From the NCBI GenBank assembly GCA_964491475.1, contig CAZBFO010000001.1, positions 8,605 to 72,604 on the forward strand: a stretch of DNA of 64,000 nucleotides, given 5' to 3'. The position numbers and the translations under genes were made by a program. The stretch is from an uncultured Gammaproteobacteria bacterium (GTDB taxonomy: Bacteria > Patescibacteriota > Patescibacteriia > SG8-24). Below, one piece after another: positions 8,193 to 50,796 of this stretch; positions within the stretch are counted from its first letter, which is position 1, and each line of letters begins with the position of its first letter. A model generated the notes under the pieces. That model was not told where the DNA came from. It saw only the letters and a list, made by a program, of their open reading frames with translations, and did no database searches.

Positions 8193-9971
8193 TTGATGCG
8201 GCGGTCACGGCGGCCTGCCGCAATGGTTATGCCAGAAAGCGCAACCGGAAACCCGATGATCGACTTGTTGGTGCAGTCCGGCCGCATCACCGCGGAGCAG
8301 TTTCGCGCCTACGAGGCCGAAGCCGCTGCCGCCGGGAAGCCGGTCGACGTCCTTTTGGTTGAGAAAAAGGTGGTCGACGAGGAGACCATGGCAAAGGCCA
8401 AGGCCGCGCAGCTCGGCCTGTCGTATGTCGATTTACAGGGCAGGGAAATCAAGGCGGAAACGCTGAACCTGATCCCCAAAAACGTCGCCGAAACCAACAA
8501 GGCGGTCCCTTTCGACCGCGACGAGGCGCACGTGAGCATCGGCATCGTCGATCCGCGCGACGCTCGCGCCATGCAGGCCATCGACTTCCTCGCCCAGACC
8601 GTCGGGTTCAGCCCCAAGTACTTCGTGATTTCGACGGCTTCGTTCAACGGCGCGCTCAAGAAGTACGCCACCATCGGCAAGGACGTGGCCGGAGCGCTCG
8701 AGGCGGCCAAAGAGCGCTTCGTCCCCGAAAAGAAGGTGGCGGTATCCGAGGAACGCATCGAGGAGGTCATCAAGGGGGCGCCCGTGTCGCGCATCGTCTC
8801 GGTCATTCTCCGCCACGCCGTCGACGGCGGCGCCTCCGACATTCACATCGAGCCGTTCGGCGAAGAGACTCGCGTCCGCTACCGCGTCGACGGCATGCTC
8901 CGCACCACCCTGACGCTGCCCAAGTACATCCATGCCTCGCTGGTCTCCCGCGTAAAGGTGCTGTCCAACCTCAAGCTGGACGAGACCCGCGTGCCGCAGG
9001 ACGGCCGCATCACCGAGAACTTCAGCGGCAAGGTGATCGACTTCCGCGTTTCCACCATCCCGCTGGCCGAAACCGAAAAGGTGGTGATGCGCATCCTCGA
9101 CACCACCCGCGGCGTGCCGACGCTCGAGCAGCTGGGCTTCCGGCCGCAATTCGTGGAAATCATCAAGCAGGAAGCGCGGAAGCCGCACGGCATCTTCCTC
9201 ATCACCGGTCCGACCGGCTCCGGCAAATCGACCACCTTGCTGACGGTGTTGAGCATGCGCAACGAGGAGGGCGTCAACATTTCCACCCTCGAGGACCCGA
9301 TCGAATACTTCATCAAGGGCGTCAACCAGTCGCAGGTGCGTCCCGAAGTCGGTTACACCTTCGCCAGCGGCCTCCGCGCGATGCTGCGCCAGGACCCGAA
9401 CGTGATCATGGTCGGCGAAATCCGCGACGGCGAGACCGGCGAGCTGGCCATTCACGCCGCGCTCACCGGCCATCTCATCTTCTCGACTCTGCACACTAAC
9501 GACGCCCTGGGCGTGGTGCCTCGCATGGTCGACATGCACGTGGAGCCGTTCCTGCTTTCGGCGACGCTCAACGTGGCCATCGCCCAGCGCCTGGCGCGCA
9601 AGATCTGCGAACGCTGCAAGGCGCCGACGACGCTGCCGCCGGAAATCGAGGAATCAGTCCGGGAGGAAATCGACGCCATCCCGGAAGTCTACAAGACCCA
9701 TCTCGACCTCGCTGCGCCGAAGCTGACGGTCTACAAGGGCATGGGGTGCGTGCGCTGCGGCAATAGCGGCTACATGGGCCGGGTCGCCTGCGCGGAGATG
9801 ATCGTCTACGATGAGGAGCTCCGCCTGCTGATTACCAAGGGTTTTCCCTCGGAGCAGGTCAAGAAAGAGCTGGTCAAGCAGAATGCCATCACCTTGCGCC
9901 AGGACGCTCTCTTGAAGGCTTTGGAGGGTTCAACTACAATTGAGGAAGTCATGCGGATTACCGCCGAATAA
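8193..9971 (+). CDS. pilB: Type IV pilus assembly ATPase PilB (GspE family)
   Basis: N-terminal GSPII_E-N-like domain, Walker A GPTGSGKSTT, Asp/His boxes, and the tetracysteine motif CERC...CVRCGNSGY. The start could be an internal Met (MIDLL...). Confidence 0.9.
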   Translation: MMRRSRRPAAMVMPESATGNPMIDLLVQSGRITAEQFRAYEAEAAAAGKPVDVLLVEKKVVDEETMAKAKAAQLGLSYVDLQGREIKAETLNLIPKNVAETNKAVPFDRDEAHVSIGIVDPRDARAMQAIDFLAQTVGFSPKYFVISTASFNGALKKYATIGKDVAGALEAAKERFVPEKKVAVSEERIEEVIKGAPVSRIVSVILRHAVDGGASDIHIEPFGEETRVRYRVDGMLRTTLTLPKYIHASLVSRVKVLSNLKLDETRVPQDGRITENFSGKVIDFRVSTIPLAETEKVVMRILDTTRGVPTLEQLGFRPQFVEIIKQEARKPHGIFLITGPTGSGKSTTLLTVLSMRNEEGVNISTLEDPIEYFIKGVNQSQVRPEVGYTFASGLRAMLRQDPNVIMVGEIRDGETGELAIHAALTGHLIFSTLHTNDALGVVPRMVDMHVEPFLLSATLNVAIAQRLARKICERCKAPTTLPPEIEESVREEIDAIPEVYKTHLDLAAPKLTVYKGMGCVRCGNSGYMGRVACAEMIVYDEELRLLITKGFPSEQVKKELVKQNAITLRQDALLKALEGSTTIEEVMRITAE

Positions 9972-31315: not shown

Positions 31316-31403
31316 TGGCGGAGAGGCAGGGATTCGAACCCTGGATACCTTTCGGTATACTCGCTTTCCAAGCGAGCGCACTCGACCACTATGCGACCTC
31401 TCC
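31316..31403 (-). tRNA. tRNA-Ser(GGA)
   Basis: The reverse complement folds as GGAGAGG-U-CGC-AUAGUGGUCGAGU-GCG / CUCGC-UUGGAAA-GCGAG / long variable arm / CAGGG-UUCGAAU-CCCUG / CCUCUCC-G-CCA. Anticodon is GGA and CCA is encoded. Confidence 0.85.
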
Positions 31404-40960: not shown

Positions 40961-42217
40961 ATGCCAAAGAAGCCCGCCAAGAAACCCGCAACCAAAAAGC
41001 CGGCCAAGAAGTCCGCCGCCAAGAAGCCGGCTGCTTCGAAGAAGGCTCCTGCCAAGAAGTCCGCCGCCAAGAAGGTCGCTCCCAAAAAGTCTTCGGCCAA
41101 GGAGTCGCGCCCCGCGCGCATCAAAGCCATCGCGCCCGAGCAGTCCGAGATCGACTTGCTGCTCAAAAAGACCCGCATGCGCGGCTTCGTCACCGAAGCC
41201 GAGGTGCTTTCGGTTTTCCGCGACCTCGAGGAGTACGTCCCGCTGTTCGAGGAGTTCCTGGCCGCGCTCGACCACATGGGCGTGCAGATCATCGAAATGA
41301 AGGAGGGCATTCTGGGCCGCGCCGAAGAGCGTGAGCAGATGCTCAACTCCGTCCGCGCCACCAAGGAAAAGAAGCGCTTTGATTTGACGGACATCTCTGC
41401 GGATTCCATCCAGATGTACCTGCGCGAAATCGGCAAGATTCCGCTGCTTACCGGCGAAGAAGAAGTCGCCCTGGCCAAGCGCAAGGAGCGCAACGACCGC
41501 GAGGCCGAACGCCGCCTGATCGAAGCCAACCTCCGCTTGGTCGTCTCCATCGCCAAGAAGTTCGTCGGCAAGTCGCTGTCGCTCCTGGACCTGATTCAGG
41601 AGGGCAACATCGGCCTGTTCCGAGCGGTCAAGAAGTTCGAATACCGCAAGGGCTACAAGTTCTCCACCTACGCCACTTGGTGGATCCGCCAGGCCATCAC
41701 CCGCGCCTTGGCCGACCAGTCCCGCACCATCCGCATTCCGGTGCACATGGTCGAGACTATCAACCGCTTCCAGCAAGTGGAGCGCCAGCTGATCCAGGAC
41801 CTCGGCCGCGAACCGCTGCCAGAAGAGATCGCTTCTGAAATGGGCGAGGACATCGACAAGGTCCGCCACATCATCCAGATTTCGCAGGACACCGTCTCGC
41901 TCGAGACCTCGGTGGGCGAGGACGACGAAGACAGTACGCTGGTGGACTTCGTGGAGGACGTCAAGAACGTCGCGCCGGACCGCGCCGCCGCCTTGCAGCT
42001 GCTCCGCGACTACGTCCGCGACGTCATCAAGGACCTCTCGCCGCGCGAACAGAAGATCCTCGAGATGCGCTTCGGCCTGACGGACGGCGTCGGCCACACG
42101 CTCGAGGAAGTCGGCCAGGAGTTCGACGTCACCCGCGAGCGCATCCGCCAAATCGAGGCCAAGGCCCTCGAAAAGATCCAAAACCACCAGGGCATCCTGC
42201 GCCTGCGCGACTACTAG
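40961..42217 (+). CDS. rpoD: RNA polymerase sigma-70 (RpoD) with H1-like K/A-rich N-terminal tail
   Basis: Regions 1.2-4 are present, including the rpoD box [13 protein letters not shown], region 2.4 and the region 4.2 HTH. The N-terminal roughly 50 aa are [21 protein letters not shown] repeats. Confidence 0.92.
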
Positions 42218-42285: not shown

Positions 42286-42840
42286 GTGGAATTCAACAGC
42301 CAAGGCTCGCCCTTCCGGCAGTACGTGCGCAGCATGTTTGCCGCATTCGGTTCCGCGTGGCTGTGGGTTTCCGCAGTCACCCTTCTGCTCACGCTGATGT
42401 TCAGCGGCGGCACCATCGGCCTGCCCGAAATGACGGTCACGCACCGGCTCATCTCGGCCGTGCCGGCGCTGCACGGCATGCTGGCCGCGCGTCCGACGGT
42501 TTCGTTGTTCGCCACGCTGGTGTTCGCCCCGCTGTTCGAGGAAGCGCTGTTCCGGATGCTGCCGCTGTCGCTGGCCCTGGTACTGGGTGGCCTGCTGCAC
42601 GACCGGTTCGCGCACCACTCGCGCAACCTCATCCGTTCGGTGCTGATCGTGGTCTGCTGCCTGATCTTCGGCATCATGCATGGCAGCGTCCTGAACGTCT
42701 TCATCCAAGGCATGGTCGGCCTGGTGCTGGGTCGGCTCTACCTGCGCCACTCCGAGCACCAGGGCCGCGCCTACCTGGCGTGCGTCCTGGTCCACGCGAT
42801 GTACAATTTTGCGGTGCTCTGCGCGGCCAACATCGGTTAG
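42286..42840 (+). CDS. CPBP-family (CAAX) intramembrane metalloprotease
   Basis: EEALFRMLPL, FGIMHG and HAMYNF motifs. Multi-TM. Confidence 0.75.
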   Translation: MEFNSQGSPFRQYVRSMFAAFGSAWLWVSAVTLLLTLMFSGGTIGLPEMTVTHRLISAVPALHGMLAARPTVSLFATLVFAPLFEEALFRMLPLSLALVLGGLLHDRFAHHSRNLIRSVLIVVCCLIFGIMHGSVLNVFIQGMVGLVLGRLYLRHSEHQGRAYLACVLVHAMYNFAVLCAANIG

Positions 42841-42964
42841 TCTTCTTTGCCTCCCGTCACGGGAGGCTTTTTCGTACGTGCGAGCCGGCCCGACACCCTT
42901 GCCACGGGCGTCGTTTTGCGCTATCCTGTCCGGACTCTCATCTGTGAGAGCCAAGGAGGACATC

Positions 42965-44581
42965 ATGAGCGTGCACATTCATCGTTTCCCGTGGGGTTTC
43001 GGCGAAGACGCGCAGGTATGGATCGTGCAGTTCGGTTCCAAATCGACGCCGCTCATCGCGCAGTTGTGCCGCGAAGTGACGCTGCGCAGCCGCATCGTTT
43101 CGTGGCAGGCGTTTCCGGAAGCGTGGCGTACCAAGTCAGCGACGCCGCGGCTGGTCATCCTGTCCGGCGGCGACCAAAGCGTCACCGATGCGGATGCGCC
43201 CAGTCTGCCGAAAGAGCTGTACCTTCAACTCGTGCGGGAGACGGTAGTGCTCGGCATCTGCTACGGCGCGCAGCTGTTGGCTCATTTTGGCGGCGGCGCG
43301 GTCCGCCGGGCAGAAAAGCCCGAGTTCGGCACCGTGAACGTCACGAGCAAGCCGTTCGGCAACTATTCCGGAGGTCAGGCGGTGATGAATCACCGCGATG
43401 AAATCGTGACGCTCCCCAAGTTCTGGGAGAGAATCGCCTCGACCGAGCGTTGCGCCAACGCCCTTTGCGGAGACCGCAACGTCTGGGCCGTGCAGTTCCA
43501 TCCCGAGATGGACCACACCGAGAACGGAGAGGCGATCCTGAATCACCTCGCTTTCGACATCGCACGGTGCCAGTCCGACTACGACTTCGACCCGAACGAG
43601 TACGTCGCGCGGTGCGGACAGTGGCTGACCGAAGTGGCGCCGCGGGGCGACGTGCTCTGCGGCCTGTCCGGCGGCGTCGATTCCGCAGTGGCCATGACGA
43701 TCGCGCGGCAGCCGCTGCGACGGCGGCTGCGCGGCATCTTCATCGATACCGGCTGGATGCGCGAAGGGGAGCTGGAAGAGGTCCGCTCCGTCTTCGGAGA
43801 CAAAGGCGTGGCCTACGAGCGCGCGGGCGAGGCATTCTACGATGCCGTCGAAGCCGTACCGTACCCGGAGGGCGGTACCGCCTCCGAAAACGAGTACCGC
43901 TACTACGACGCGGTGCGCAAGACCATCGGCCAGAAGTTCATCGACCAGTTCCTTGCCACCGCAAAACGGCTGTCACTGCGGCCGTCGGCGCTGATCCAGG
44001 GCACCAACGCCGCCGACATCGTCGAATCGGAGACCGGACTGAAGGCTCACCACAACGTCGGCGGGCTGCCGGCACGACTGGGCGTGGACATCGTCGAGCC
44101 GCTGGCCGGACTGTTCAAGTTCGAAATCCGCAAACTGGCGCGTGCGCTCGGCTTGCCCGAGAGCATCGCCGCGCGCCAGCCTTTTCCCGGCCCCGGTTTG
44201 GCCGTGCGTTCCTGGGGCAAGCTGACGCGCCAAGACGCGCCGCCTCTGGCTCGCGCCAACCGCATTCTGGAAGAGGTGATATGCCGGCATTGTCACCCGG
44301 CTCTTCGTCCAAGCCAGTACTATGTGGCCCTCGCCAAGTTTCCGAGCACCGGCATCATGGGCGACGCGCGGGTCATCGGCTATTCTTGGGTCGTCCGCAT
44401 GGTCACCTCGCGGCAACGTGAAAGCTACAGCACGCTCGGCGTCTTTCGTCCCAGCCCGGAGTGCCTCGACGAGCTGGCGCATCGGCTGACGACGGAAGTC
44501 ACCATGCCCGACGGCACCCCGTTCGTTCGCGTCTTCTACGAGATCACCGGCAAGCCTCCGTCGACGACGGAGCCGCACTAA
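42965..44581 (+). CDS. guaA: GMP synthase (glutamine-hydrolysing)
   Basis: ATG after AAGGAGG. GATase (GICYGAQLL, VQFHPE). PP-loop SGGVDSAVA. HHNVGGLP. C-terminus ...FYEITGKPPSTTEPH is like the GuaA dimerisation domain. Confidence 0.88.
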   Translation: MSVHIHRFPWGFGEDAQVWIVQFGSKSTPLIAQLCREVTLRSRIVSWQAFPEAWRTKSATPRLVILSGGDQSVTDADAPSLPKELYLQLVRETVVLGICYGAQLLAHFGGGAVRRAEKPEFGTVNVTSKPFGNYSGGQAVMNHRDEIVTLPKFWERIASTERCANALCGDRNVWAVQFHPEMDHTENGEAILNHLAFDIARCQSDYDFDPNEYVARCGQWLTEVAPRGDVLCGLSGGVDSAVAMTIARQPLRRRLRGIFIDTGWMREGELEEVRSVFGDKGVAYERAGEAFYDAVEAVPYPEGGTASENEYRYYDAVRKTIGQKFIDQFLATAKRLSLRPSALIQGTNAADIVESETGLKAHHNVGGLPARLGVDIVEPLAGLFKFEIRKLARALGLPESIAARQPFPGPGLAVRSWGKLTRQDAPPLARANRILEEVICRHCHPALRPSQYYVALAKFPSTGIMGDARVIGYSWVVRMVTSRQRESYSTLGVFRPSPECLDELAHRLTTEVTMPDGTPFVRVFYEITGKPPSTTEPH

Positions 44582-44582
44582 A

Positions 44583-44622
44583 AGGCGCTAGCCCCCCGAC
44601 GTACGTCGGGGGGCCTTTTTTG
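44583..44622 (+). terminator. Rho-independent terminator after guaA
   Basis: GCCCCCCGACGTACGTCGGGGGGC + TTTTTT. Confidence 0.6.
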
Positions 44623-44640
44623 TGGCCCGCTGTCTTAATC

Positions 44641-44668
44641 TTGCATATTTTTAGAAGATTGCTACACT
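44641..44668 (+). promoter_or_regulatory. Sigma70-like promoter (TTGCAT-16nt-TGCTACACT) for the intron-containing tRNA
   Basis: -35 TTGCAT at 44641-44646. Extended -10 TGCTACACT at 44660-44668. About 24 nt upstream of the mature tRNA 5' end. Confidence 0.45.
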
Positions 44669-44698
44669 GTGGACACCTCAAATCAGAGAGGCCCATAT

Positions 44699-45037
44699 TC
44701 CGAGGTAGCTCAGTTGGTAGAGCAGAGGACTGTCAAACTGACATGGCCTGCAAAGGTCAAAGCGGACCCGTCGCGCGAGCGGCGGTCAGGCAGCGCCCCG
44801 CGGTAACGCGAGGATGTAAAACTGGGTGAATTCGGCGAACGTTGTCCAACCAACGCCGAGCCAAGCCTCGCCACAAGCGAGGAAGGTGTAGAGACTATCC
44901 CGCAAGGGAGTAGGGGTCCGAGCAATCGGACTTCGAAGCGCCCGGCCCCGCCGGCAACAGCCGGAGGGTGATGACATAGTCCAGTAGTCAGAACTGTAAT
45001 CCTTTGGTCCTGGGTTCGAGTCCCAGCCTCGGAGCCA
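44699..45037 (+). tRNA. tRNA interrupted by a group I intron in the anticodon loop (mature 76 nt; Asn(GUU) favoured, Asp(GUC) possible)
   Basis: 5' half TCCGAGG-TA-GCTC-AGTTGGTA-GAGC-A-GAGGA-CTGT.. and 3' half ..TAA-TCCTT-TGGTC-CTGGG-TTCGAGT-CCCAG-CCTCGGA-G-CCA. The acceptor, D, anticodon and T stems pair perfectly across a roughly 263-nt insert. Confidence 0.8.
44734..44996 (+). ncRNA. Group I self-splicing intron (approximate boundaries)
   Basis: The intron core contains an R-like GUAGAGACUA (44888-44897) and an S-like GACAUAGUCC (44973-44982) able to form P7. Under the boundary choice used here, the intron ends in G (omegaG 44996) and the 5' exon ends in U. The terminal CUGAC...GUCAG can pair. 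The exact junction is ambiguous by up to 3 nt. Confidence 0.65.
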
Positions 45038-45043
45038 TGAAAG

Positions 45044-45082
45044 ACGCGCGTCATTTTGACGGGCGTTTTTCATTTGTGTCGC
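45044..45082 (+). terminator. Terminator after tRNA
   Basis: GACGCGCGTC/CGCGTCATTTTGACGGGCG hairpin region followed by TTTTTCATTT. Confidence 0.4.
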
Positions 45083-45240
45083 GCCAACCTTTTCAGGTTC
45101 GAACGGGACGCTCTCCGCACCGACTGAAGACGTTTTAATCGCGCTAAGGGAGGCACGTAAATTACTGTTATCGCCGCGTGCGCCTGTGAAGATTCATTTC
45201 GCCGGATAGACAAATTGACTAATTCTCCTAAGATGACAGC

Positions 45241-45813
45241 ATGGAACCCCTGAAAACAGGTCCCGATACAAAAATAATTGCCTTCATGCTTGCAATCGGC
45301 AACGCACGTCAATCGTATATTTTGGCGCGCCTTGGTTTATTGGAGGCCTTATTTGTGCCCTCATGTTTGTTGGCGCAGCAGAGTTTAGAATACTGCATCA
45401 AGGCCACTGCCAGAATATATTGGCATGAGATTGAAAGCAGGACTGGGAAAAAGATTGATAGGTTTTTGGAAGGTCATCACCTGGTCTCCTTGATGAGGCG
45501 AGCAGCGCCTTATGTGCCCCAGTACAATGCGATTCTTAATGACCACACTAAAAAAGAATTTTTGAAAGAACTGTCCGAAGTCTATAGATCTTCTCGTTTT
45601 GGAGAGACCGGTCTTAGCATCGATGGTCAGAAGAGCATAGGACTCCTTGACGATCTGTTCGCGACCTTGTTTCAAATTTATCGAGACTGCCTGAAGTTTC
45701 CGAAATACAAGCTCTTTGTCCCAAAAAATCTGCAAACTGCATTTTTATTTGGAAATGCAAATTTTAAAACCGAGGATATATCACACAATATTCTTGAAAC
45801 ACTCGGCTCATAG
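45241..45813 (+). CDS. Hypothetical protein encoded in low-GC islet
   Basis: 190-aa ORF in AT-rich DNA (the rest of the window is about 65% GC). No recognisable motif. Confidence 0.45.
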   Translation: MEPLKTGPDTKIIAFMLAIGNARQSYILARLGLLEALFVPSCLLAQQSLEYCIKATARIYWHEIESRTGKKIDRFLEGHHLVSLMRRAAPYVPQYNAILNDHTKKEFLKELSEVYRSSRFGETGLSIDGQKSIGLLDDLFATLFQIYRDCLKFPKYKLFVPKNLQTAFLFGNANFKTEDISHNILETLGS

Positions 45814-45965
45814 ACAGCCGAGCGCTGCCTTTGGTTTCCTTGGAAACACAACAAAAACCGCAAGAACAAAAGCTCGCGGCTACACTCTACGAATATTATA
45901 TTCTTGAAATCGAAACGACAGGCTCTTTGTCACCCGCTAGGCTTACACTTGAGCCTGTGGTCAAG

Positions 45966-46163
45966 ATGTGGTACACTGTTATCGATTATATAAGGCCATA
46001 TCTTATGCTCAAGCAGCTTAAAAAGAAGCCAATTAGCCATAAGCTCTTAATCACAGCTATTTCGCGATCTTCAAAGATTGAGGGTCTGAGTTTGAGTCGG
46101 GCGCTAAAGAATACTTCAGTTATTAAGAAACTTAGAGTGCATGGGCGAGCCTTCTCGTTATAA
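45966..46163 (+). CDS. Putative FicA/VbhA-like antitoxin (small protein with S-x-x-x-E-G inhibitory motif)
   Basis: The ORF is open from 45831. The internal start at 45966 gives about 65 aa. Contains SSKIEG, matching the [S/T]xxxE[G/N] Fic-inhibitory motif. Overlaps the Fic gene start by 23 nt. Confidence 0.4.
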   Translation: MWYTVIDYIRPYLMLKQLKKKPISHKLLITAISRSSKIEGLSLSRALKNTSVIKKLRVHGRAFSL

Positions 46164-46731
46164 GGTAAGTGACGATGATGCCGGCGTTGAAGGTGGAATT
46201 CTGATAAACAAATTGGGAATTAAGAATCAGAGAGACTTGGACGATGCCGAGACGTTGCTTGTTGCAGATTCGTATAAACATTTTTTTGAAGAGCTGGCGC
46301 AGGGAAAGATTACCTTTGATCTCTCCTTGCTTTTTGTAATCCATGCGTATTGCTTTGAGACACTGTATGCATGGGCTGGCAAAGTCCGGACCATTGACTT
46401 GTCCAAGGACGGGGTACTGTTTGCGAGTGCGCAATTTCTACCGGCAACCATAGGGGAGCTAAGAAACATTGTGACAGACAATTTCCCCCGAGGTTCTGAT
46501 TCTAAACGAACGATCGCCGAGAAACTCGCGCTGATCCACAATGAAATCAACATCGTACACCCCTTCAGAGAGGGGAACGGTCGAACCCTGCGTTTATTTA
46601 TTGATTTAATTGTAAACAGCCTAGATTTGCCCGCCGTGAACTGGGATGTTCCGAATTACCTCGACGAATGCAAGAAGGGCATAACGGGCGATAATTCGGG
46701 TATTGAGAAAATTATTCACGACAGCATCTGA
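46141..46731 (+). CDS. Fic/Doc-family protein (FicT-like AMPylation toxin)
   Basis: Canonical Fic active-site motif HPFREGNGRTLR, i.e. HPFx[DE]GNGRxxR. About 196 aa. There is no internal inhibitory helix motif. Confidence 0.85.
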   Translation: MGEPSRYKVSDDDAGVEGGILINKLGIKNQRDLDDAETLLVADSYKHFFEELAQGKITFDLSLLFVIHAYCFETLYAWAGKVRTIDLSKDGVLFASAQFLPATIGELRNIVTDNFPRGSDSKRTIAEKLALIHNEINIVHPFREGNGRTLRLFIDLIVNSLDLPAVNWDVPNYLDECKKGITGDNSGIEKIIHDSI

Positions 46732-46806
46732 GGATAAGGTCGTCGTCATTAAGTCATTGTGGGCAAAGAGGTCGAATAAAAAGCCCCGCTGCTATCATCC
46801 ACGCAT

Positions 46807-47256
46807 ATGCTTACCATCATCCTCCTTTCGCTCGGCGGCGCGGTCATCGCGGCAATTGTCGGCACGTTCTGGTATTCGAACGCCACTCCTATGGGGCGGC
46901 TGCACATGCGCTATCTCGGATTCGACAAGCTCACGGAGGCAGAGAAGAAGGCCAAGATGCAAGAGGGCAAGGCGATGATGGGCAAGATGTACGCCTCGCA
47001 GCTCGCGCTTTCCTTCCTCACCGCTTTCGCCACGGTCTTCATCGTGACCATGAGCATGCGCAACGGCCTGTCTTTCGGCGCTGCGCTCGGGTTCGTGGTA
47101 CTGAACTGGCTGTGCTTCGTCGTGCCGACTATCGGCCAGTCGATCCTTTGGGGCAACTGCGATCCGAAGATCGCCAAGATGAAGTTCGTTTCGGACAGCC
47201 TGTCGAACCTGGTGACGCTGCTTCTGGTCGCCGCGCTCGCCAGCGCGTTCGTCTAG
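46807..47256 (+). CDS. Small multi-TM membrane protein (DUF1761-like)
   Basis: Four hydrophobic helices. GC content returns to the genomic level. Followed by a hairpin+T-run terminator at about 47286-47325. Confidence 0.5.
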   Translation: MLTIILLSLGGAVIAAIVGTFWYSNATPMGRLHMRYLGFDKLTEAEKKAKMQEGKAMMGKMYASQLALSFLTAFATVFIVTMSMRNGLSFGAALGFVVLNWLCFVVPTIGQSILWGNCDPKIAKMKFVSDSLSNLVTLLLVAALASAFV

Positions 47257-47439
47257 GCCTTGGACTTGCCCGCTTGTCCGGAAAAGAGCAGGCCAGCAAA
47301 TTGGCCGGCTCTTTTTGAAAGCACGCGACGACATTTTTGTCCGGTCGGTTTTTTATCGAAACTGTAGTATTCTTTGCGGGATATGGTCGGTGCGGATATG
47401 TCGCCCGTTCCGACGGCATTCTCACGACCCGTTACGCCT

Positions 47440-47862
47440 ATGGCCGAACTAAGAATCCAACCCACCAAGAACTCCGTCGTCGCATTCCTCAAGACCGTCG
47501 AGCCTGCAGGCAAGCGCAAAGACGCGCTGACGCTCCTCGCGCTTTTCAAGAAGATCACCGGCCAGAAGCCGGTGCTGTGGGGCGCGTCCATCGTCGGTTT
47601 CGGCAGGTTCCGTTACAAGTCCGGCAGCAGCGAAGGGGAGTGGTTCCGCACCGGCTTCTCGCCGCGTAAAGGCAACTTCTCGCTGTACATCCTGGAGTGG
47701 CAGGCAAAGCCGTCGCCGCACCTCAAGAAGCTCGGCAAGTACAAGGCCGGCGGCGGCTGCCTTTACGTCAACAAGCTCGCCGACATCGATTTGAAAGTCC
47801 TGGCGCTTCTCATCAAGGAGTCGAGCAAGCGGAAGCATCGGAACGAAGTGCACGCATCTTGA
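47440..47862 (+). CDS. DUF1801/YdhG-like domain protein
   Basis: ELRIQPTKNSVVAFLKTVEPAGKRKDALTLLALFKKITGQKPVLWGASIVGFGRFRYK matches the DUF1801 pattern. The ATG at 47440 is preferred. Confidence 0.55.
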   Translation: MAELRIQPTKNSVVAFLKTVEPAGKRKDALTLLALFKKITGQKPVLWGASIVGFGRFRYKSGSSEGEWFRTGFSPRKGNFSLYILEWQAKPSPHLKKLGKYKAGGGCLYVNKLADIDLKVLALLIKESSKRKHRNEVHAS

Positions 47863-47874
47863 TCAAAAAAGCCT

Positions 47875-49392
47875 ATGACGTCGACCCGAGCCAGAAAGGA
47901 TTTCTCAAAGACGATGCGCGACGGGTTCGATTGGTTTTTTAATCTCCCTTCCGTGAAGCGGTGGCGTGAGGCGCATCCGACACTGGTCGCCTACGCCGAA
48001 CGACGGCTGTCGCCCCAAGGATTCGCGGGCCTGCCCCTCACTCTTCTTGCCGCCGCTTTTCTGTACACGGTCGTCCTCTTCCTGGGGCTCGTTGAAGACT
48101 ACCTTTCGCACGACCCGCTCATTCTGGCCGACGTGCGTATCGCCAACTTGCTCTTCTACTTTCGCAATGATCATCTTCTGCGATTCTCGTATTTCGTCAC
48201 GTTGCTTGCCGAAGCGGGCGTGATCATCGCGGTCGCTGTCGGGCTTTCCGCGCTCTTTTGGTTTCGACGCCAACGCATCTTCATCGTGACGCTTTGGCTC
48301 ACCTTGATCGTTGCGGAAGGCACGACGTTCGCCGGAAAGCTGGTCTTTCACCGTGCGAGGCCGGACGAGCTTCTCCGCGCAGTGAGCGAAGATTCCTTCT
48401 CGTTTCCGAGCGGGCATGCGACAGGTGCCGCGGCCTTTTACGGCCTTCTTGCCTACCTGTTGCTGCGCTCCGTCAAATCATTGAGAACGAGAATCTCGGT
48501 CGTATTTTCCTTCGCGGTCCTGGTGCTGCTCGTTGACTTCAGCCGCTTGTATCTCGGCGTGCATTACCTAAGCGACGTTTTGGCCGGAAATCTCGTCGGA
48601 TTGGCGAGTTTGCTTTTTGCCGTCGGTCTCACGGAATGGATGATTTCCCGCAATCCGGCCGAGGGGCCAGTGCGCTTCTCGTGGACTGATCTTGGGATGA
48701 CGGCAGTCGGCACGTCCGTCGTCGTTTCGACTTTTTTCTTCGTGATCGCGCGGCTCCCTCCGGCCCATCTTTCGGAAGCAACGCCGAAAAACGTCGGTGA
48801 CGAAGCCGTTTTGGGGCTGTTCGAGAGCGGAGCATTGCCTCGGTATACCGAAACCTTGACCGGTGTAACGCAAGAGCCGGTGAACGTTGTCATCGTCGCG
48901 TCGGAGAAATGCTTCGAGAACGACGTGGCTTCCGGCGGCTGGACCCTGGCCGAAAGCGTTTCACCGTCGTCTGCGGAGCGCATCGCCAAAGCTGCGTTGT
49001 TCAATGACGAATATCCGACGGCACCGATGACCCCGTCGTTTTACCATGCAAAGCCCAACGATTACGGTTTTGAGAAAGAAACGGACAGAAAAAGCGTCCG
49101 GAGCCGCCATCATGCGCGTTTCTGGCGGTCCGGCTACGTGACGCCCCAAGGAGAGCTTTTTGTCGGCACTGCCAGTCTCGACACGGGCCTCAAATGGGGT
49201 ATCACCCACGCCATCGCGCCCGACATCGATACCGAGCGCGACGTCTTCGTCGCCGACATGGAGAAGGCGGGTATCGTGGCGGAAAAGCGGCTCGTCCCCT
49301 TCGTGCAGCCGATTCTCGGTCAAAATTTCGCAAGAGACCCATTCTTCACGAATGGTCAGGCTGCGATTCTGACATTTAAGAAGTGTTTTTGA
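47875..49392 (+). CDS. PAP2-family membrane phosphatase with C-terminal extracytoplasmic domain
   Basis: PAP2 motifs KLVFHRARP, PSGHA and SRLYLGVHYLSDVLAG. About 6 TM segments, then a roughly 230-aa soluble domain. Confidence 0.75.
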   Translation: MTSTRARKDFSKTMRDGFDWFFNLPSVKRWREAHPTLVAYAERRLSPQGFAGLPLTLLAAAFLYTVVLFLGLVEDYLSHDPLILADVRIANLLFYFRNDHLLRFSYFVTLLAEAGVIIAVAVGLSALFWFRRQRIFIVTLWLTLIVAEGTTFAGKLVFHRARPDELLRAVSEDSFSFPSGHATGAAAFYGLLAYLLLRSVKSLRTRISVVFSFAVLVLLVDFSRLYLGVHYLSDVLAGNLVGLASLLFAVGLTEWMISRNPAEGPVRFSWTDLGMTAVGTSVVVSTFFFVIARLPPAHLSEATPKNVGDEAVLGLFESGALPRYTETLTGVTQEPVNVVIVASEKCFENDVASGGWTLAESVSPSSAERIAKAALFNDEYPTAPMTPSFYHAKPNDYGFEKETDRKSVRSRHHARFWRSGYVTPQGELFVGTASLDTGLKWGITHAIAPDIDTERDVFVADMEKAGIVAEKRLVPFVQPILGQNFARDPFFTNGQAAILTFKKCF

Positions 49393-49509
49393 TCGATTTT
49401 GGGAGAACGAACGGCCGCTGACTACGCCGGTGGTTTTGTTTCCGCCCGTGCTTGCCGCGCGCCCATAGTTCACCTACACTACAAGGCGTAATGCACCCTA
49501 TCCCAAGCC

Positions 49510-50796
49510 ATGTCCCAAACCGCACAGCCGACGACGCTCGCCTCGAACGCGGGGAAAATCGCGCAGATGCTCAACAAGGTCCCCGAAGTGACAATCTACT
49601 TTTGGGTCATCAAGGTGCTCTGCACCACGGTCGGCGAAACCGCCTCGGACTTCCTCAACGTCAACTTGAACTTCGGCTTGGTGAAGACTTCCGTGGTGAT
49701 GGGCCTGCTCTTCGCCGTCGCGCTCTTCTTTCAGATGCGCATGAAGAAGTACGTGGCCGGACTGTATTGGGCGACGGTGGTGCTCATCAGCGTGTTCGGC
49801 ACGCTGGTCACCGACAACCTTTCTGACAGCATGCACGTGCCGCTGGAATACAGCACCGTCGCTTTCAGCGCGCTGCTGGCGCTCACTTTCGGCATCTGGT
49901 ACGCGAACGAGAAGACGCTCTCGATGCATTCCATAGTCACGACGCGGCGCGAGAGCTTCTATTGGCTGGCGATTCTCTTCACCTTCGCGCTGGGTACCGC
50001 ATCGGGCGACCTCATGGCCGAGAGCCTCGGTCTCGGCTACGCCACGACCGGTCTCATCATCTGCGGCGTCGTCGCCGCGCTGGCGATCGCCTGGCGCCTG
50101 GGCCTCAACTCGATCCTGTCGTTCTGGCTCATCTACGTGATGACGCGGCCGCTCGGCGCCTCGTTGGGCGACTACCTTTCGCAGCCCGCAAAATACGGCG
50201 GGCTCGGGCTCGGTGCGACGGTCACGAGCGCGGTTTTCGTCGCGGCCATCATCGCGACAGTCGTGTTCCTGACGCTCACGCGACGCGATGTCGTCTCCGC
50301 GTCCGTCGCAAACGCGGAAGCGGAAGAAGAGAAGGCCGAACGGGGAGGGCTGTGGCAGACGGCCGTCGTCCTCGCGATCCTTCTGTTGGCATCCGGCCTC
50401 GGTTATTCCTCCAGGCGTGCCGCGCTGATGGCACCGGCGAATGACGCGCCGAACCCGGGCACGGCCGCAGCGGGCGCAGGTTCGGAAGTGAGCGCAGGCA
50501 AGGACGCCCGCACGCGGCCGCTCGGCGACCTCTCAAGTTTCCGGGCCATCGTGCAGGACTCGCACGACCTGGTCGTCGCAGGCAAGCTGTCCGATGCCAA
50601 GACGCGCATCGCCGACCTTGAATTCGAATGGGACAACGCCGAAGCGCGGCTCAAGCCGATGAACCCGGCAAAATGGACCGAAATGGACGGCGCCATCGAC
50701 CGCGTGTTGCGGGACTTGCGCGCAGTCAATCAGGACGGGGCGGCTTGCAAGGCTTCGCTCGAGAAGCTGCTGTCGGTTATCGAGGGTGATTCGTAG
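49510..50796 (+). CDS. Multi-TM membrane protein with internal duplication (COG4705-like)
   Basis: Repeated motif VIKVLCTTVGETASDFL / LAILFTFALGTASGDLMAESL. C-terminal soluble helical domain. Confidence 0.55.
   Translation: MSQTAQPTTLASNAGKIAQMLNKVPEVTIYFWVIKVLCTTVGETASDFLNVNLNFGLVKTSVVMGLLFAVALFFQMRMKKYVAGLYWATVVLISVFGTLVTDNLSDSMHVPLEYSTVAFSALLALTFGIWYANEKTLSMHSIVTTRRESFYWLAILFTFALGTASGDLMAESLGLGYATTGLIICGVVAALAIAWRLGLNSILSFWLIYVMTRPLGASLGDYLSQPAKYGGLGLGATVTSAVFVAAIIATVVFLTLTRRDVVSASVANAEAEEEKAERGGLWQTAVVLAILLLASGLGYSSRRAALMAPANDAPNPGTAAAGAGSEVSAGKDARTRPLGDLSSFRAIVQDSHDLVVAGKLSDAKTRIADLEFEWDNAEARLKPMNPAKWTEMDGAIDRVLRDLRAVNQDGAACKASLEKLLSVIEGDS

Follow-up and report, generated by a model that had tools for sequence, protein, structure and literature searches.

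Bacterial tRNA genes are known to contain group I introns, and a survey by Williams (2020, bioRxiv 10.1101/2020.01.27.920355, tFind) raised the number of types from four classical ones to 21. Among these, according to Nakagawa et al. (PMC13011429), is the type 'Asn.4Ug'. Nakagawa et al. (preprint 2025; mSystems 2026, PMC13011429) showed that the introns of GCA_016700035.1 (Asn) and GCA_001029755.1 (Asp) self-splice in vitro precisely between tRNA positions 35 and 36 (35/36), using an ωG-to-C control and sequencing of the product. The same work assigned 25 of 28 35/36 introns to subgroup IA and reported HNH genes in four; in the part of its Table S5 compared here, tRNA-Asn introns of Nitrospirota and Bipolaricaulota are classed as IA1. 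Here we describe a locus of this kind at positions 44699-45037 (+ strand) of a 64,000-nucleotide (nt) stretch, hereafter the window, of contig CAZBFO010000001.1 (GCA_964491475.1, deposited as an uncultured Gammaproteobacteria bacterium). The locus is very probably a functional Patescibacteria tRNA-Asn(GUU) gene, in which a group I intron of subgroup IA type, free of any open reading frame (ORF), separates anticodon positions 35 and 36. The locus adds a member to a class already described and validated by experiment: the kind was first listed in 2020, and its splicing was shown in 2025-26.

The window intron has the same P1 (CUGU^...GGCAGC, where ^ marks a splice junction) and the same 3' junction (...GUG^UAA) as the validated tRNA-Asn intron of GCA_016700035.1. 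With the Patescibacteria tRNA-Asn 35/36 introns of PMC13011429 it shares the tRNA, the site, the phylum, P1, ωG^UAA and the J6/7-P7 and J8/7-P7' core, as well as the extra hairpin(s) between P7 and P3' and the same tool failures and miscalls; some members of that class have an HNH ORF in the P1 loop. The published 35/36 members compared here, which are a part of the published set, form P9 as a local hairpin, and their P1 loops are mostly short, whereas the window and its relatives of the same type (the window clade) have no P9 hairpin, a helix that joins the P1 loop to the intron's 3' tail, and two GNRA-capped hairpins within a P1 loop of 56 nt. The tRNA-Asn(GUU) 35/36 introns of Nitrospirota and Bipolaricaulota, as far as they appear in the tables compared, have the same site, P1, ωG, P9.0 and core as the window intron but come from other phyla, possess a P9 hairpin and have a single long element between P7 and P3'.

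The subgroup IC3 tRNA introns (Azoarcus tRNA-Ile(CAU), cyanobacterial tRNA-Leu(UAA), Agrobacterium tRNA-Arg(CCU)) also lie in the anticodon loop, with the anticodon stem holding the exons. They sit at 33/34, 34/35 or 36/37 and, unlike the window intron, lead from P7 directly to P3' without P7.1/P7.2 and form a P9 hairpin that docks on the core through its tetraloop. The Azoarcus intron has core strings (AAUUCGGCGAA, GCCGAGCCAAGC and AAGGUGUAGAGACUA) very similar to those of the window. Subgroup IA introns of phages (T4 td, Twort orf142-I2) carry P7.1/P7.2 between P7 and P3' and use P9.0 to position ωG; they reside in protein-coding genes, have P10 and P9-P9.2 peripheral domains, and are set beside the window intron by architecture. 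The motif aaggtgtagagacta also occurs in IC3 tRNA-Leu introns in the portion of PMC13011429 Table S5 compared.

The tRNA-Asn gene and its splice junction

A 76-nt tRNA split by an insert of about 263 nt, with the discriminator G and CCA encoded, had originally been predicted from the sequence alone, and all of these elements were located in the window:

44699-44733, + strand: tRNA-Asn 5' exon, tRNA positions 1-35, 35 nt, its final base U35 being the second anticodon base
44734-44996, + strand: group I intron, 263 nt, no ORF, ending in ωG at 44996
44997-45037, + strand: tRNA-Asn 3' exon, positions 36-76, 41 nt, ending in GCCA, with the discriminator G and CCA (45035-45037) encoded

The joined exons fold into a perfect 76-nt cloverleaf with the 7-nt loop CUGUUAA, which ARAGORN, run on the spliced sequence, calls tRNA-Asn(GUU). 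The tRNA has U1:A72 and a D-loop of the 17/17a type, and its body agrees with tRNA-Asn. Intron-less tRNA-Asn genes are found 3' of rpoD in relatives whose RpoD is approximately 85% identical to that of the window, and the spliced product is identical to these at 70 of 76 positions (L135) and 68 of 76 (L136/L137). The expected likeness to tRNA-Asn after splicing is borne out by the ARAGORN call and by the 70/76 identity to the syntenic gene. In a separate comparison, the tRNA-Asn exons of L008 were found to differ from those of the window by one D-loop base.

The splice junction is framed by the direct repeats CUGUCAA and CUGUAA, which are indeed present at both borders of the insert. Judged from the sequences compared, three independent lines (placement, relatives and intron-less alleles) fix the junction as U35^...ωG^U36, with anticodon GUU. 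No site other than 35/36 combines U(-1) and ωG with a loop of 7 nt. The bases 3' of CUGU vary among the relatives (CAA, CGA, AGA, GAA), and therefore GUU alone is common to all of them. At the syntenic position the intron-less tRNA-Asn genes of L135 and L136/L137 have ...GGACUGU^UAAUCCUUU..., exactly the predicted ligation product, and read ...GGACUGUUAAUCC... across the junction. The elements expected at the two splice sites are:

44730-44733, + strand: P1 exon strand CUGU, its U44733 being the wobble partner (U·G) at the 5' splice site (helix 2)
44790-44793, + strand: P1 internal guide sequence GCAG, inside an invariant AGGCAGC directly 5' of P2, pairing U44733·G44790
44983-44984, + strand: P9.0 5' strand AG, pairing with CU at 44994-44995 just before ωG

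P1 (CUGU/GCAG), ωG as the last intron base (G44996 in the window) and exon positions +1 to +3 (UAA) are invariant in 22 of 22 sequences, including five introns from the parts of the published tables available for comparison. P9.0 is invariant in the window clade and takes the forms AG/CU, AC/GU, AU/AU, AA/UU and GA/UC in the wider family. The anticodon GUU (Asn), which the original prediction had derived by applying group I rules, is upheld by the invariance of P1 and ωG, by the match of the intron-less alleles to the junction and by the in vitro splicing of a homolog at 35/36.

The border repeats permit other placements of the insert. Asp had been anticipated as the competing identity; the trap that the repeats set for software is instead a 2-nt shift to tRNA-Thr(UGU) at 33/34. 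This is exactly the call of ARAGORN in intron mode: the same 263-nt insert is moved two bases upstream, a shift allowed by the UGU repeated at both borders, so that the exons become ...GGACU^...^UGUAAUCC... and the spliced read ...ACUUGUAAUCC.... The insert would then end in C (...GAAC) and not in ωG, and P1 would be left without its U·G wobble there. Intron-less tRNA-Asn genes of the same locus, moreover, share 92% identity with the exons, and a systematic 2-nt-shift error of this type was disproved by sequencing the spliced product (PMC13011429), which makes a threonine tRNA very improbable here. For tRNA-Asp(GUC) we see hardly any probability at all. It would have the loop CUGUCAA(A) read straight through and the insert removed after position 37 or 38; the 5' border does read CUGUCAA, and ARAGORN made such a call for one published homolog (PMC13011429 Table 1). 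However, this would leave an abnormal 8-nt loop on a shifted stem and an insert ending in A rather than G; relatives have AGA, GAA or CGA after CUGU, with GUU the sole family-consistent anticodon, and U1:A72 and the tRNA body match tRNA-Asn.

Two further pairings near the splice sites were considered and rejected. The sequence GUAGUC (44985-44990), taken as a guide, would form 6 base pairs (bp) with exon GACUGU; this pairing is broken in L008, L010, L011 and L012, where CUGRC/GYCAG stays. The other, a hairpin UGUCA-AAC-UGACA spanning the 5' splice site, is not conserved and would leave that site without a U·G.

Intron core, covariation and the helix in place of P9

The Rfam family Intron_gpI (RF00028) matches 44777-45002 across its full length at 36.2 bits (E = 1e-7 in a 501-nt search, E = 1.3e-5 when both strands of the whole window are searched). 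Its alignment places P3, P4, P5, P6, P7, P8 and P7' in canonical order, with a 39-nt insertion between P7 and P3'. The proposed identity as a group I intron is confirmed by this alignment of the P3-P8 core and by covariation in 13 sequences. An Rfam search had been suggested as a check, with the lack of a hit counting against the intron; the match is significant, and 'no hit' proved misleading as a criterion at the default gathering threshold. The core elements GUAGAGACUA (44888-44897) and GACAUAGUCC (44973-44982), previously noted as able to form P7, are present and form a 6-bp P7. The parts of the intron, from 5' to 3', are:

44738-44742, + strand: long-range helix 5' strand CUGAC at the start of the P1 loop, four bases past the 5' splice site (helix 3)
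44745-44758, + strand: hairpin 1 of the P1 loop, GGCCU-GCAA-AGGUC with a GNRA tetraloop, read from the sequence
44765-44787, + strand: hairpin 2 of the P1 loop, with a GCGA tetraloop; relatives have variable hairpins or an HNH ORF here
44796-44813, + strand: P2 hairpin, CCCCGCG-GUAA-CGCGAGG; every relative has a hairpin directly 3' of the guide
44822-44828, + strand: P3 5' strand CUGGGUG (helix 4), with two compensatory pairs
44832-44859, + strand: P4-P5 domain, P4 at 44832-37/44854-59 and P5 at 44841-43/44848-50 (helices 5 and 6)
44861-44886, + strand: P6 proximal and distal (helices 7 and 8), the distal pairs compensatory in 6 of 6
44893-44898, + strand: P7 5' strand GACUAU (helix 9), invariant and preceded by the conserved J6/7 GUGUAGA
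44899-44908 and 44916-44931, + strand: P7.1 and P7.2, two GCAA-capped hairpins between P7 and P3' (helices 10 and 11)
44939-44945, + strand: P3 3' strand CGCCCGG, from the Rfam alignment and the pair count
44947-44968, + strand: P8 hairpin (helices 12 and 13)
44976-44981, + strand: P7 3' strand AUAGUC, making the 6-bp P7 with GACUAU (44893-44898)
44987-44991, + strand: long-range helix 3' strand GUCAG, at the place of the relatives' P9 hairpin

The full model was built from the window copy and mapped onto a MAFFT-based alignment of 13 sequences (alignment A2; type A, the window clade), trimmed of the variable P1-loop insert and of a single unpaired linker base so that the columns stay in register. 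P2 was kept outside the formal pair count, its hairpins differing in length and its columns being out of register. Standard pairs fill 95.4% of 779 cells, compared with 32-42% after a shift of the 3' partners by 1-3 columns, and 25 of 63 pairs have changed on both sides. None of 500 shuffles matched any of the observed pairing measures. Compensatory pairs are distributed over P3 (2), P5 (1), distal P6 (6/6), P7.1 (1), P7.2 (6/6) and P8 (5), and the anticodon stem contributes one (AU/GC/UA). P4, P7 and P1 are invariant or nearly so, and covariation therefore speaks neither for nor against them. The P7.1/P7.2 hallmark of subgroup IA corresponds to the 39-nt insertion, with 7 covarying pairs in helices 10-11. 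An equivalent of hairpin 1 is found in 9 of 9 ORF-less relatives, with a GNRA cap in seven of them, AUAA in L010 and GUUAA in L127.

The pairing of the intron ends (CUGAC...GUCAG), mentioned in the original prediction as a possibility, is present and covaries in the relatives. In the window clade only nine bases (UA-GUCAG-AA) lie between the strands of P9.0, leaving no P9 hairpin, and the five core pairs of the long-range helix are formed in 64 of 64 cells, with one alignment gap among the 13 sequences. Variants of this helix are CUGAC/GUCAG, CUGGC/GCCAG, CUAGC/GCUAG, UUGAC/GUCAA and CUGGU/GCCAG, so that three positions covary, and a sixth pair is found in four sequences. The helix is pseudoknotted with P1 as well as with P9.0. 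An ordinary P9 hairpin between the P9.0 strands is found in L002, L005 and L006 and in those published tRNA-Asn introns that were compared.

Since P10 is one wobble pair at most, the long-range helix is assigned a putative role in aligning the 3' splice site, and we infer from the sequences that it may, together with the anticodon stem, hold this site beside P1. A tentative reading, about which we remain somewhat doubtful, is that the window clade (13 distinct sequences) has lost P9 and is closed by a pseudoknot of the P1-loop start with the nine-base loop enclosed by P9.0, which would act as a built-in substitute for P10/P9 clamping the splice sites; this is judged against the part of the published data compared. 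No 35/36 intron within that part shows a P9-less periphery of this kind, and for group I introns as a whole the arrangement may not have been described before. Neither 'actgtaatcc' nor 'ggactgtcaaa' occurs as a string in the portion of the PMC13011429 supplement searched. The pairing of the P1 loop with the 3' tail, which covariation supports, is the one element of the locus that may be new.

Based on this model, splicing could proceed as follows. The gene would be transcribed into a 339-nt precursor, in which P3-P8 fold into the ribozyme core, complete with the P3/P7 pseudoknot and hairpins P7.1/P7.2. The final exon bases CUGU would pair with GCAG located 57-60 nt into the intron to form P1, placing U35·G at the cleavage site, and an external guanosine would attack after U35. 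The ωG (44996), placed by the 2-bp P9.0, would then enter the G-site, and the free 3'-OH of U35 would attack before U36, ligating the exons into the loop CUGUUAA. The tRNA anticodon stem would hold the exons in place of P10, and in the window clade the 5-bp helix 44738-44742/44987-44991, replacing the P9 hairpin, would tie the splice sites together.

Several points weigh against a functional tRNA-Asn gene with a subgroup-IA-type intron. P1 comprises 4 bp only and never varies, and therefore covariation is no test of it; it is backed by its conservation and by its position directly before P2, as in other tRNA introns. P10 is absent, with at most one wobble (U+1·G), because an invariant AG precedes GCAG; in other tRNA introns P10 is dispensable and the anticodon stem holds the exons. 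The window copy has mismatches, one C·A in P2 and one G·A in P8. The subgroup, put forward as probable IA, is taken from the architecture and the published classification of relatives. We infer the splicing of this particular copy from the comparative analysis, and the inspection covers 64 kb of the genome, such that a second, intron-less tRNA-Asn may exist elsewhere. Finally, the Intron_gpI score of 36.2 bits is below the Rfam gathering score of 50 bits. Williams (2020, bioRxiv 10.1101/2020.01.27.920355) pointed out that the Rfam seed is without bacterial sequences and used cut-offs of 18-20 bits, and the gathering threshold is a curation choice, no structural criterion.

Some observations would also suit a decayed copy, with function lost from the intron or from the gene as a whole and the cell relying on another tRNA-Asn: the intron is without a homing endonuclease, P2 and P8 each have a single mismatch, and 64 kb of the genome were inspected. 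The core helices are all intact, however, every family-invariant position is kept and the exons form a perfect cloverleaf with CCA. In addition, copies of the same anticodon with and without an intron rarely coexist in one genome (PMC13011429). A decayed copy therefore appears unlikely, and we favor the functional tRNA-Asn(GUU) gene with its 35/36 intron.

Relatives, mobility and genomic setting

Relatives were sought by scanning one genome per species with a pattern composed of the P7 region and the 3' junction. This yielded 13 loci, nine being tRNA-Asn introns of the same kind and four lying in another tRNA, apparently tRNA-Phe(GAA). A metagenome scan with the pattern ATAGTCCAG-N8-12-TGTAATCC gave at least 7 further tRNA-Asn introns (7 of 120 among the matches listed, the rest being mostly chance); one of the metagenome loci, L116, is identical to L012. 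In total, genomes and metagenomes yielded at least 16 related tRNA-Asn introns. Their lengths range from 230 to 580 nt, and in all recovered tRNA-Asn loci the 5' half ends in GGACUGU and the 3' half starts with UAAUCC. Most of the recovered loci also show linkage of rpoD and tRNA-Asn.

HNH-like ORFs of approximately 120 amino acids (aa) are found in the P1 loop in L011, L012, L098, L123, L002, L006 and L134. They have a CxxC...HH...CxxCH pattern and weak matches to Pfam HNH (PF01844) of 17-20 bits, compared with a cut-off of 21.4. The window gene has stops in all three forward frames and no ORF of the size of the relatives' HNH ORFs. Because these relatives have an HNH ORF in the P1 loop where the window has two GNRA-capped hairpins, the window intron is probably an immobilized derivative of a once mobile intron. 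Among genomes with 85-90% identical RpoD, some have an ORF-less intron (the window, L008, L010, L013, L022), one an ORF-bearing intron (L134) and others none (L135, L136). Such sporadic presence fits the expectation for a mobile intron passing through gain, decay and loss.

The related introns in the other tRNA (L001, L003, L007 and L009; for example L003 7454-7556, minus strand) come from metagenome-assembled genomes (MAGs) of Patescibacteria and others. Their loop CU^...^GAAAA implies tRNA-Phe(GAA) interrupted at 33/34, and their P9 contains GGAGUAAUCCAAG, an accidental match to the scan pattern. One Phe(GAA) 33/34 intron is listed in PMC13011429 Table 1.

The host, judged from RpoD as the one marker protein, appears to be a member of the Patescibacteria. 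The best named matches of the window RpoD (418 aa) are to Candidatus Parcubacteria, Patescibacteria group and Uhrbacteria, at 78-92% identity. The MAGs of L008, L011 and L001 are labeled 'uncultured Gammaproteobacteria bacterium', and the RpoD of L008 is 90% identical to the Patescibacteria-type RpoD of the window; the Gammaproteobacteria labels of these binned assemblies are probably wrong. The window RpoD (40961-42217) carries a Lys/Ala/Pro-rich, histone-H1-like N-terminal tail of about 50 aa with PAKK-type repeats and a weak Pfam HC2 match.

The gene order is dnaG, rpoD, a guaA-like gene and tRNA-Asn. The guaA-like ORF (42809-44581) has GATase and GMP_synt_C domains with weak scores and no counterpart in the syntenic loci of the relatives, and the true start of the gene is probably well within the 590-codon ORF. 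Two terminator-like elements flank the tRNA gene:

44591-44622, + strand: terminator-like hairpin with a T-run, ending the upstream guaA-like gene
45049-45071, + strand: terminator-like hairpin with a T-run, just 3' of the tRNA gene

The upstream hairpin implies that the tRNA gene is transcribed on its own. The host genome is high in GC (63%), and GC content falls from approximately 0.63 to 0.53-0.58 immediately 3' of the tRNA-Asn gene (window positions 44000-50000). Genes in the low-GC part encode Fic/DOC (46141-46731), PAP2 and LssY_C (47875-49392) and DUF347 (49510-50796). This stretch may be an old island inserted beside the tRNA; within the window, no repeat of the tRNA 3' end marking an integrated island and no integrase were seen. 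A blastn search with the tRNA-Asn locus found nothing among the PLSDB plasmids.

Annotation and implications

Neither Rfam at its gathering thresholds nor ARAGORN in default mode makes a call at 44699-45037, and the sole tRNA found by default tools in the window is tRNA-Ser(GGA) (31316-31403, minus strand). A tRNA-Ser(GGA) is also present in the relative L135, upstream of dnaG. In L134 the intron-bearing tRNA-Asn gene (8309-8943) is covered by three small overlapping called coding sequences (68, 69 and 92 aa, on both strands), which shows that such introns give rise to spurious protein annotations. By the account of Nakagawa et al. (PMC13011429), 35/36 genes escape tRNAscan-SE, ARAGORN and tFind or receive a wrong call from them, the typical one being Thr(UGU) at 33/34. 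The window gene, unseen by default tRNA and Rfam annotation and named tRNA-Thr by intron-aware ARAGORN, belongs to the same pattern. Its genome would therefore be scored as being without tRNA-Asn, distorting both completeness estimates and the inferred codon capacity for genomes of the candidate phyla radiation (CPR), a point on annotation and completeness also raised in PMC13011429.

General knowledge of group I introns is unchanged by this locus, and with the window copy the class now reaches a Patescibacteria lineage of high GC content. The set has, at a single syntenic position, alleles that carry an HNH ORF, lack an ORF or lack the intron, and it is useful for following how such introns are gained, decay and disappear. 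The covarying pairing of P1 loop and 3' tail bears on the question of how the 3' splice site of a group I ribozyme is aligned when both P10 and P9 are missing.

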